NCBI GenBank assembly: GCA_048940925.1
Contig: JBHLOC010000070.1
Coordinates: 1 to 13,806, forward strand
DNA length: 13,806 nt
Direction: 5' to 3'
DNA from: Promethearchaeota archaeon
Lineage (GTDB): Archaea > Asgardarchaeota > Lokiarchaeia > Sigyniarchaeales > SOKP01
Shown here: positions 777 to 8,710 of the stretch, piece by piece
Position numbering within the stretch: the first letter of the stretch is position 1
Layout: each line of letters begins with the position of its first letter
Position numbers and translations under genes: made by a program
The notes under the pieces: model-generated
What the model saw: the letters and a program-made list of their open reading frames with translations, nothing else
What the model was told of the DNA's origin: nothing
Databases searched by the model: none

Positions 777-1256
777 TCAAAAATTAGTAATAAAGCGTTT
801 CTCTCTTTTTTCTACATACTGTTGGTGATAATCTTCTGCTTGCCAAAAGTCTGAGGCGGGTACAATCTGGGTAACAATCGGGTTTTTGAAGCGTTTAGAA
901 TCTTCAAGTCTAGTTTTAGTGTTCTCAGCTTTTTCTTTCTGTTCTGAATCAAGATAGAAAATTGCTGACCTATATTGAGTGCCAACATCTGGACCTTGCC
1001 GATTTAGAGTAGTTGGGTCATGAATCGACCAGAATACATCTAATAGCTCATCATATGTTACTTTAGAGGGATCATAGGTAATTTCAATAGCCTCAGCATG
1101 GCCCGTCTTATGAGAACATACATCTTTATAGGTTGGATTAGTAAAATGTCCACCAGTATATCCCACACGAGTAGACACCACGCCTTTTATTTTTCGAAAA
1201 TTGGCTTCTACTCCCCAAAAACAACCTGCTGCAAAAATTGCTCTTTGATATTCCAT
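777..1256 (-). CDS. msrA: Peptide-methionine (S)-S-oxide reductase MsrA
   Basis: GCFWG catalytic motif, [27 protein letters not shown] and AEDYHQQY. Start moved to the ATG at 1256 (MEYQRAIF), which is preceded by GTGTGATAAAT (SD-like). The 29 extra N-terminal residues in the ORF track look non-coding. Confidence 0.97.
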
Positions 1257-1299
1257 ATTTATCACACAAGGATTCCATGAAATAAATCTTGGTCTAATG

Positions 1300-1308
1300 T
1301 TATATAAA
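1300..1308 (-). promoter_or_regulatory. Candidate TATA box for msrA in the msrA/msrB divergent intergenic region
   Basis: Reads TTTATATAA on the minus strand, ~45 nt upstream of the msrA ATG. The core TTATATAA is palindromic. Confidence 0.35.
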
Positions 1309-1407
1309 TTTAAGACGAATAGTAGGATTTTTCTATAGTACATATCCTCATTTTTTTTAGGATTTATAAGGAATCAATTATAATACCAGTATTTCCTTTT
1401 TAACAGT

Positions 1408-1797
1408 ATGAAGTCTAAAGAAACTGAAGATAAATGGAAAAATAAATTATCAAAAGAGCAATACCACGTTCTTCGTGAAAAAGGAACTGAACCTGCTTTC
1501 ACTGGAAAATATTGGAATAATCATCGAACAGGGATTTATAAATGCGCAGGTTGTGGAAAACCTTTATTTTCTTCTGAAGATAAGTTTGATTCTGGAACTG
1601 GATGGCCAAGTTTTTATGAACCTATTGATAAAGAAAACATTGAAGAAAAATTGGATACAAGTTATGGAATGAAGCGCACTGAGGTCCTATGTAAAAATTG
1701 TGGGGGGCATCTAGGGCATGTTTTTGACGATGTACCAAAGAATAAGGGATGTCGATATTGTATTAATTCGATTTCTTTAGATTTTGAGAAGAAATGA
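1408..1797 (+). CDS. msrB: Peptide-methionine (R)-S-oxide reductase MsrB, zinc-binding type
   Basis: GTE..FTG, two Zn CxxC motifs (CAGC, CKNC), [21 protein letters not shown] and RYCINS. Confidence 0.97.
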
Positions 1798-7871: not shown

Positions 7872-8165
7872 ACTCACCACGATATATTATTATTAAAATG
7901 GTTTACAATAGAATTGCTATTCTAAAAATAGATTCAGAAATGTTTAATTATTTAACTTATGGAGTCCAATTTTTCTTTTTCAAGTTTTTCGGGATCAATG
8001 ATTCTTCAAAATAATAAGTATTAAAAAATCACAGAAGATAGTCAACATAAAAATGAATATGTTATTTTAGAATGTCCAATTAATAGAGTAGAGAAATAAG
8101 GATTCCTATTTTTATTTAAATTAATTAATTCAATGTTTTATTGAATTTGTCTTCAAATTAAAAAA

Positions 8166-8240
8166 GATTTGGATAAGTTTGGCTAACTTTTAAGAAAAAA
8201 AGCTTCATTATCCTTTTCAACTTTAATCCTACCAAATCAT
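8166..8240 (-). promoter_or_regulatory. Structured 3' UTR element of the UGA-containing gene (candidate SECIS and/or terminator)
   Basis: Complementary arms GAUUUGG/CCAAAUC (8232-8238 with 8166-8172), GGAUAA/UUAUCC and AGCUUUU/AAAAGUU. Two AUGA motifs (8240-8237, 8208-8205), followed by a U-run. A clean AUGA/GA kink-turn could not be established by eye. Confidence 0.3.
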
Positions 8241-8242
8241 TA

Positions 8243-8710
8243 TTATTGGATTTTTTTTAATACTTCGAAAATTTCTTCATTTGTGGGAATATCGCTCATA
8301 CTATCACCATAATATGCATATTGAATGATTCCTTGCTTATTAATGACCAATAATCCCGGCATTCTCCCAAGTTTAGTAATTTTTACTTCTTGTTTAAGCA
8401 TTTTAGGAACTTTTTTTGTTTTATCATAAAATACAGGATATTTACGTGCATATTTTTGTTCCATTTTAATCGCATTTTCCTTTTTATCAGCTAATATTGG
8501 ATATAAGTAAGCATTTAATTCTTCAAACTTTTCATAATCTTTCCGTAGTTGAGCAGCATGCCAACGACAATAAGGTCAATGAATATCCCTGAAAAGAACT
8601 AATACAACGTTCTTACCCTCTAAGTCTCTGATATTTACCGTTTCTTCTCTTGAATTAGATAATTTAAATTCTTGAATTTTTGTACCTACTAATTGAAATT
8701 TATCCTTCAT
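8243..8710 (-). CDS. Peroxiredoxin-like (AhpC/TSA, thioredoxin-fold) protein, probable selenoprotein with UxxC motif (Sec45)
   Basis: ATG at 8710 reads MKDKFQLVGTKIQEFKLSNSREETVNIRDLEGKNVVLVLFRDIH-TGA-PYCRWHAAQLRKDYEKFEELNAYLYPILAD... in frame with the 73-aa ORF-track fragment. TGA (8576-8578) is the only interruption in 155 codons and sits at the first Cys of the family's CPxC motif. Confidence 0.9.

Follow-up and report, generated by a model that had tools for sequence, protein, structure and literature searches.

A Prx-like gene with a conserved in-frame TGA codon in a Loki-type Asgard archaeon and the three-way-junction RNA behind its stop codon

Introduction

Lokiarchaeal PrxL proteins were described as peroxiredoxin (Prx)-like selenoproteins with a C-x-x-C box, in which the first or both Cys residues are Sec and outside which there is no other Cys; the form PrxL.1 carries UxxU and PrxL.2 carries UxxC (Mariotti 2016, PMC4989117). 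Prx-like selenoproteins were subsequently reported for 43.2% of the Sec-using Asgard archaea (Huang, Xiao, Zhang 2024, PMC11227280), and a review of 2026 also includes the family. The recoding signal of these archaea, lokiSECIS, directly follows the coding sequence and consists of AUGA, a 9-bp stem, an 11-nt loop (AAAAA...AG) and GA (Mariotti 2016, PMC4989117). The models of Huang 2024 (PMC11227280) place a GA_[G/A]A quartet around a stem of 7-15 bp and were applied as the search patterns NNGAN, stem 7-15, loop 8-20 and N[G/A]ANN, with the remark that additional SECIS patterns may remain unidentified. Our full-text search of the literature for a SECIS with a three-way junction found nothing relevant. 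Asgard SECIS elements have been used in arguments on the origin of the eukaryotic Sec-insertion system.

Here we describe a monocistronic PrxL gene of Promethearchaeia, a Loki-type Asgard lineage, which lies on a stretch of 13,806 nucleotides, hereafter the window. We consider it very probable that this is a selenoprotein gene in which UGA codon 45 is read as Sec, with a three-way-junction RNA behind the stop codon as the most likely recoding signal. The gene shares with Asgard PrxL the AhpC/TSA fold, a predicted Sec as the first Cys of C-x-x-C at the site of the Prx T-x-x-C, the lack of Cys outside the box, the Loki-type Asgard host and the position of the presumed signal directly after the coding sequence. 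It differs in that this signal would be a three-way junction instead of the AUGA/9-bp/11-nt/GA hairpin, whereas the canonical form belongs to the other PrxL-like gene of the same genome. Because the family has already been published as Asgard PrxL (Mariotti 2016; Huang 2024), the first of these papers being cited in a sequence-only reading of the window, the gene adds one case to a family and lineage already on record and is not a discovery; a text search for it in the supplements of Huang 2024 (PMC11227280) gave no match, which is uninformative on whether it was catalogued there. What is unusual is the 3' RNA only, which departs from the published models.

Results

An intact reading frame interrupted by a single TGA codon

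Translation of the coding sequence (Table 1) yields 155 sense codons followed by TAA, and the TGA at codon 45 is the sole interruption. The read-through product matches the Pfam profile AhpC-TSA (PF00578) with residues 8-131 on profile positions 1-123 of 124 (E 6.6e-23), and this match extends across the TGA codon. The Redoxin profile is matched as well (E 1.7e-18), the two profiles together covering residues 8-140. The sequence-only reading had described an intact 155-codon AhpC/TSA-like gene with one TGA at codon 45, of which the 73-aa ORF was the C-terminal part only; coordinates and description proved exact, and the entry in the ORF list indeed begins at M83.

Table 1. Features of the window (positions counted from its first letter) and related loci on other contigs and in other genomes
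Feature	Position or locus	Strand	Remarks
Probable PrxL selenoprotein CDS, complete	8243..8710	-	ATG 8708-8710, 155 codons, TAA stop 8243-8245
Predicted Sec codon, in-frame TGA, codon 45	8576..8578	-	context ...VLFRDIH-U-PYCRWH...
Redox box U45-P46-Y47-C48	8567..8578	-	from translation and orthologue alignment
73-aa ORF from standard caller	8243..8464	-	C-terminal fragment, begins at M83
Three-way-junction RNA, 77 nt	8164..8240	-	starts 4 nt after the stop codon
P1 helix	8232-8238 paired with 8166-8172	-	GAUUUGG/CCAAAUC
P2 arm	8193-8230	-	
P3 hairpin	8175-8189	-	loop UAGCCAA
U-P-[YH]-[A/S/T]-K-A subgroup	L034, L035, L040, L056, L061, L063, L064, L067-L072		second Cys of the box lost
TGA-free paralogues	L043 (G058:C159:885-1352), L036:2143-2610 (G057:C126)		Asp at the Sec column, L-M-D-L-F-C
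Distant paralogue L087	G057:C196:9085-9631	-	34% identity, two predicted Sec codons, U-G-V-U; junction present
Second PrxL-like selenoprotein gene, same genome	G000:C62:28319-28735 (L015)	-	U-S-H-C, 27% identical, AhpC-TSA 2.9e-20
Sec-machinery cluster, 6.5 kb	G000:C3:45426-51927		SelB-like 45426-46322 (-), tRNA-Sec 50049-50137 (+), SepSecS 50626-51927 (+)
Tandem SelD genes	G000:C72:3553-6078		TGA near the N-terminus of each

The start codon is ATG in the copy of the window and in its closest relative. Most orthologues of the same genus (loci L017-L033) have an apparent TTG start, with AAGTGA and a conserved TTTAAAATATAAATA box before it. Within flanks of 1.5 kb, we found no conserved gene neighbours of the orthologues from which a partner or substrate could be inferred. 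About 7 kb from the PrxL gene, the window also carries a divergent pair of oxidative-repair genes, MsrA at 777-1343 (-) and MsrB at 1408-1797 (+) (PMSR 3.7e-69 and SelR 7.3e-55), both terminated by TGA; this linkage is not conserved in relatives.

The TGA column is conserved and both sides are under purifying selection

A six-frame protein search of 60 related genomes recovered full-length relatives of 46-88% identity with exactly one in-frame TGA each; two genomes in a single contig, G050 and G055, are among those with an orthologue. Of these relatives 30 were extracted, 29 of which carry the TGA, and its column is identical in all 29. A scan of named genome records yielded 31 loci, of which 25 were new. 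Their sources are Promethearchaeota/Promethearchaeia together with Jord-, Frey-, Hod-, Odin- and Borrarchaeal MAGs, and 31/31 again have TGA at this site. Agreement of this extent goes well past what chance would give. The combined set thus comprises 54 distinct orthologous loci from different assemblies with TGA in one column. No TGT, TGC or TGG was found at this column among the orthologues. The close family yielded no orthologue with Cys there; only the comparison with distant relatives, ResA for example, gives a Sec/Cys pair. The codons flanking the TGA, by comparison, vary synonymously (CCT/CCA/CCC for the invariant Pro, TGT/TGC for Cys48). The median dN/dS over usable pairs (NG86, Nei-Gojobori) is 0.118 for the 44 codons upstream and 0.110 for the 115 codons downstream of the TGA.

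The standard ORF caller returns only the 73-aa ORF, as would be expected if the TGA were a sequencing or assembly error, a recent nonsense mutation in a pseudogene or the boundary between two small genes. Such an origin has a negligible probability in our assessment: the same column holds TGA in 54 independent loci of different assemblies, dN/dS stays near 0.11 both before and after the codon, and a single Pfam domain spans it. The conserved TGA column together with selection on both sides therefore excludes sequencing error, pseudogene and two separate genes.

TGA is an ordinary stop codon elsewhere, and database entries are truncated or mistranslated

In the window, TGA terminates 5 of the 17 ORFs, namely those of MsrA, MsrB, the ABC ATPase and both cupins. 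In the genome as a whole, 262 of 1973 long ORFs (13%) stop at TGA. It is also the stop codon of 6 of the 30 orthologues of the PrxL gene. These counts bear on the possibility that TGA is a sense codon throughout the organism, as in code 4 or a 25-like code, and encodes Trp or Gly. What speaks for a Trp reading is that about 50 full-length public homologues carry Trp at the Sec column. The one entry of this type that we traced translates only with TGA=W and is located on a 666-bp contig; since translation requires TGA=W and the contigs are under 2 kb, we regard the Trp entries as artefacts of gene callers. A genome-wide sense codon is hardly conceivable given its use as a stop in the window, the genome and several orthologues of the PrxL gene itself, the position of the site at a catalytic Cys and the presence of a tRNA-Sec in the genome. 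The site-specific recoding proposed from the sequence, without an alternative code, is thus in keeping with the use of TGA as a normal stop.

The expectation that standard annotation would split or truncate the gene was also borne out. The named entries for Lokiarchaeota/Promethearchaeota at NCBI/JGI are C-terminal fragments of 85-106 aa, called 'redoxin domain-containing protein', 'thioredoxin peroxidase' or 'peroxiredoxin'; the full-length public products have the TGA as Trp. With orthologues deposited in truncated form or with a false Trp, the selenoproteomes and redox inventories of Asgard archaea come out too small.

The genome encodes a Sec pathway

The genome of the window (4.8 Mb, 90 contigs) contains a tRNA-Sec that scores 63.7 bits, above the Rfam gathering threshold, and is called SeC(tca) by ARAGORN. 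A SepSecS gene (484.6 bits) lies about 500 nt downstream of it, and the contig also carries, at a distance of about 4 kb, a SelB-like GTPase (240 bits). The latter and a PSTK-like gene (139 bits) do not reach the NCBIfam cut-offs, which derive from other lineages. Two adjacent SelD genes (182 and 171 bits) each contain an in-frame TGA. Behind the second of these stands a lokiSECIS-like element of type II, made of AUGA, a 7-bp stem, an apical mini-stem and GA.

Misinsertion at UGA is known for some selenoproteins of other organisms. By this precedent, UGA 45 could be read by a near-cognate tRNA for Cys or Trp, or tRNA-Sec could deliver Cys when selenium is scarce, so that the mature protein would often lack Se. 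We hold this to be very improbable, though somewhat less so than an assembly error or an altered code, as the genome carries the complete Sec pathway and TGA has been strictly kept over TGT/TGC across long evolutionary distances. The same two observations argue that Sec itself has been selected. Recoding of the UGA as selenocysteine, the central proposal of the sequence-only reading, is accordingly supported by three kinds of evidence that it had proposed as checks: the conserved TGA column, purifying selection on both sides of it and the Sec machinery of the genome.

The predicted fold places residue 45 at the start of the first helix

An AlphaFold2 model computed with 32 orthologues as input (pLDDT 95.3) shows a fold of the BCP/PrxQ type, in which residue 45 directly precedes the helix 46-57. 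Foldseek ranked Sulfolobus Bcp4 (3hjp, TM 0.87) and Bcp1 (3drn, TM 0.84) at the top, with ResA at 0.75-0.77. By sequence, the best match in the PDB is ResA (4nmu; E 3e-6, about 20% identity), other near matches being the archaeal BCP/Prx-like proteins 2ywn and 2cx3. U45-x-x-C48 aligns with the C-x-x-C of ResA, U45 falling on the first Cys, where the UGA had been placed from the sequence. When aligned with BCP, the box has C48 opposite the peroxidatic Cys and U45 opposite the Thr of T-x-x-C.

R41, U45, P46 and R116 are invariant across the family. C48, the sole Cys of the protein, is shared by 26 of 29 orthologues; the U-P-[YH]-A subgroup has Ala there. With the BCP/PrxQ peroxiredoxins the protein shares the top structural matches, the alignment of Cys48 with the peroxidatic Cys and an invariant R116 at the spacing expected for the catalytic Arg of Prx, to which it presumably corresponds. 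However, the Prx signature P-x-x-x-T/S-x-x-C is replaced by R41-x-x-x-U45-x-x-C48 (R41-D-I-H-U45-P-Y-C48 in the window), and one PrxL subgroup lacks Cys48. With the ResA/TlpA oxidoreductases it shares a C-x-x-C at the N-terminus of a helix, matched by U45-x-x-C48, but identity is only about 20%, Sec would stand in place of Cys and the 155-aa product has neither a membrane anchor nor a signal sequence.

Subgroups and paralogues

A large subgroup with the box U-P-[YH]-A has kept Sec and lost Cys48. Since this subgroup does without Cys48, Sec would be the indispensable nucleophile, and the comparison of sequences indicates that it is the essential residue. Two paralogues free of TGA carry Asp at the Sec column, and neither is followed by the 3' three-way junction described below. 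In one genome (G057), the TGA-free paralogue is located directly downstream of the Sec form. The distant paralogue L087, with the box U-G-V-U, does have the same junction, and the RNA is hence common to UxxC, UxxA and UxxU members of the clade.

A three-way-junction RNA follows the TGA-bearing genes

Behind every TGA-bearing orthologue we found the same layout, consisting of GAUUUGG, a hairpin of 9-11 bp, a hairpin of 4-5 bp with the loop UAGCCA[C/A/U], and CCAAAUC. The element stands directly after the stop codon, usually within a few nt and sometimes overlapping it. Single-sequence MFE folding gave the same three-way junction in most orthologues, GAUUUGG and CCAAAUC forming the outer Watson-Crick helix P1, which covaries. 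The junction still folds in divergent orthologues that share none of the P1 and P3 sequence, one of which has UCAAAC/GUUUGA as P1 and GGUG-UGCCCUC-ACC as P3, and another GAUGC/GCAUC and GGGC-UAGCCAU-GCCC.

A covariance model, R1, was built from 23 sequences and aligns 51 elements, 49 of them distinct. In the alignment of the 49 distinct sequences, 97.4% of the cells are paired, as opposed to 35-57% when the partners were slid; in 17 of 20 pairs both partners vary, and none of 500 shuffles reached any of the observed measures. All three helices are supported by covariation. Having been fitted to the model, the alignment is biased towards the structure, but the independent MFE folds and the controls with slid partners lead to the same result.

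Searching the genome with R1 returned one significant hit, the element of the window (66 bits, E 1.3e-11), with the next at 22 bits (E 0.85). Across 61 genomes there were 27 hits; for all 27, a TGA-bearing family member, found independently by protein search, lies 8-35 nt upstream. Within the genus, gene and RNA co-occur in the same 21 of 36 genomes.

For the 77-nt element of the window itself, the MFE fold is the three-way junction at -13.1 kcal/mol, a stability that is not distinctive against shuffles in the AU-rich context (z -0.7), and support for this copy therefore rests on the comparative data. Likewise, the MFE fold of the raw 146-nt 3'UTR showed no distinctive structure (z -0.79), and the junction emerged only from the comparison. 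No SECIS family was matched when the entire window was scanned against Rfam with E values up to 10; the two hits obtained were at chance level.

Where an orthologue has TGA as its stop codon (L026, L032, L039, L042, L060, L065 and L066), the element opens with this codon (UGA-UUUGG...), and a predicted Sec-UGA and a stop-UGA stand in one mRNA, the latter overlapping P1. The Borrarchaeum loci L065 and L066 have a second copy of the junction (1309-1385) about 115 nt upstream of the gene, which suggests a tandem upstream paralogue with its own element.

The P2 arm and the canonical elements of the same genome

The genus-majority form of P2 is GAAUAAAAU-AAUAAAAAUGAG-AUUUUAUUC. Its loop ends in UGA(N) in 42 of the 49 sequences and begins with N?GA in 20. 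In the class with loops of 16-17 nt, to which the window belongs, the apex of P2 reads N-GA-AAA...-[A/G]UGA-N. The U-P-[YH]-[A/S/T]-K-A subgroup has a distinct class of 15-nt loops, ending in UUGA.

A genome-wide pattern scan recovered textbook lokiSECIS elements behind HdrA-VhuD gene pairs. Near the PrxL gene (contig C12), no canonical AUGA/9-bp/11-nt/GA hairpin was found, either by eye on the 3'UTRs or in the genome-wide scan. In the PrxL-like gene on C62, the UGA stop doubles as the AUGA of a canonical lokiSECIS, AUGA-UUCGUAUGU-AAAAAAAUGAG-ACAUCCGAU-GA. A SelD gene of the same genome has the type II form.

We tried the 'AUGA' that precedes P1 (AUGAUUUGG) as a SECIS core and ruled it out: the two bases before the GA vary freely, and the GA pairs with UC in the covarying Watson-Crick helix P1.

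Discussion

The junction as a candidate SECIS

The junction RNA resembles lokiSECIS, or the Asgard eSECIS-like type I, in being a 3'UTR element beside the stop codon, in the 9-bp stem and A-rich loop of 11-17 nt of its P2 arm, and in that this arm, with a loop such as AAUAAAAAUGAG, closely resembles the canonical element of C62, with AAAAAAAUGAG. In contrast to lokiSECIS, there is no AUGA before the 9-bp stem and no GA after it; instead, the stem opens into the Watson-Crick helix P1 and the P3 hairpin with its UAGCCA loop. The GA_[G/A]A quartet is absent, as P2 has stem and loop but is flanked by junction residues, and the search patterns of Huang 2024 (PMC11227280) do not describe the element.

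We considered two scenarios for its role. In the first, the junction is not a SECIS but a terminator, a stability or processing element or the binding site of an mRNA-specific regulatory protein, and Sec is inserted by means of another signal or none. This would account for an element that lacks the AUGA/GA core defining all published Asgard and eukaryotic SECIS models, and a U-run and a further hairpin do come after the junction. Several observations make this scenario unlikely, although less remote than the alternatives considered above for the TGA itself. The junction occurs only behind TGA-bearing members and is absent behind the TGA-free paralogues; it tracks the gene across phylum-level distances; and it sits right after the stop codon, the usual site of lokiSECIS. 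Furthermore, its P2 arm resembles the C62 element, as described above, and the 362-nt intergenic region contains no other conserved structure or canonical SECIS.

The second scenario, which we prefer, is that the junction is a family-specific variant of SECIS; on the comparison of sequences this is the most likely of the readings. That it functions as a SECIS with no AUGA/GA kink-turn core at the foot of its stem we regard as rather probable, with less confidence than we have in the recoding of the UGA. The long P2 arm would correspond to the upper stem and A-rich loop of lokiSECIS, with P1 and P3 in place of the AUGA/GA kink-turn core. We hypothesize that, in the class with loops of 16-17 nt, a permuted, K-loop-like core could form at the apex of P2, where tandem G.A pairs would close the loop; this arrangement is not universal, the 5' GA being found in 20 of the 49 sequences. 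The conserved UAGCCA loop may be a second recognition determinant.

If such a widespread and deeply conserved signal without a kink-turn core is functional, recognition by the archaeal machinery is not limited to one architecture, and the junction would be a compact test case for finding the Asgard SECIS-binding factor. A single Asgard genome would in that case employ no fewer than three SECIS architectures, the type I hairpin, type II and the junction, and the Asgard Sec machinery would not depend on the eukaryote-like core.

A proposed route from UGA to the redox reaction

The mechanism that we propose begins with Sec-tRNA(Sec), for whose synthesis the cell would use the archaeal/eukaryotic pathway through PSTK and SepSecS, with SelD as the source of selenophosphate; a factor of the SelB/EFSec type would deliver the charged tRNA. 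The UGA at codon 45 would be read as Sec by this tRNA, most likely directed by the structured RNA that begins 4 nt past the stop codon. In the protein, Sec45 at the N-terminus of the first helix may act as the attacking nucleophile of the U-P-Y-C box. A selenenylsulfide between Sec45 and Cys48 could follow and would be resolved by a cellular thiol reductant. We infer from fold and box that the protein is a thiol-disulfide oxidoreductase or a thiol peroxidase.

Two further observations concern the RNA. A perfect 8-bp hairpin, AAUUCAAU-loop-AUUGAAUU, stands at 8127-8147 (-), about 20 nt downstream of the junction and after a U-run, and may be a signal for the 3' end of the transcript. The near-invariant P3 loop UAGCCA (about 8178-8185 (-) in the window) contains GCCA, which equals the 3' end of a tRNA with discriminator G; mimicry of a tRNA end by this loop is speculation.
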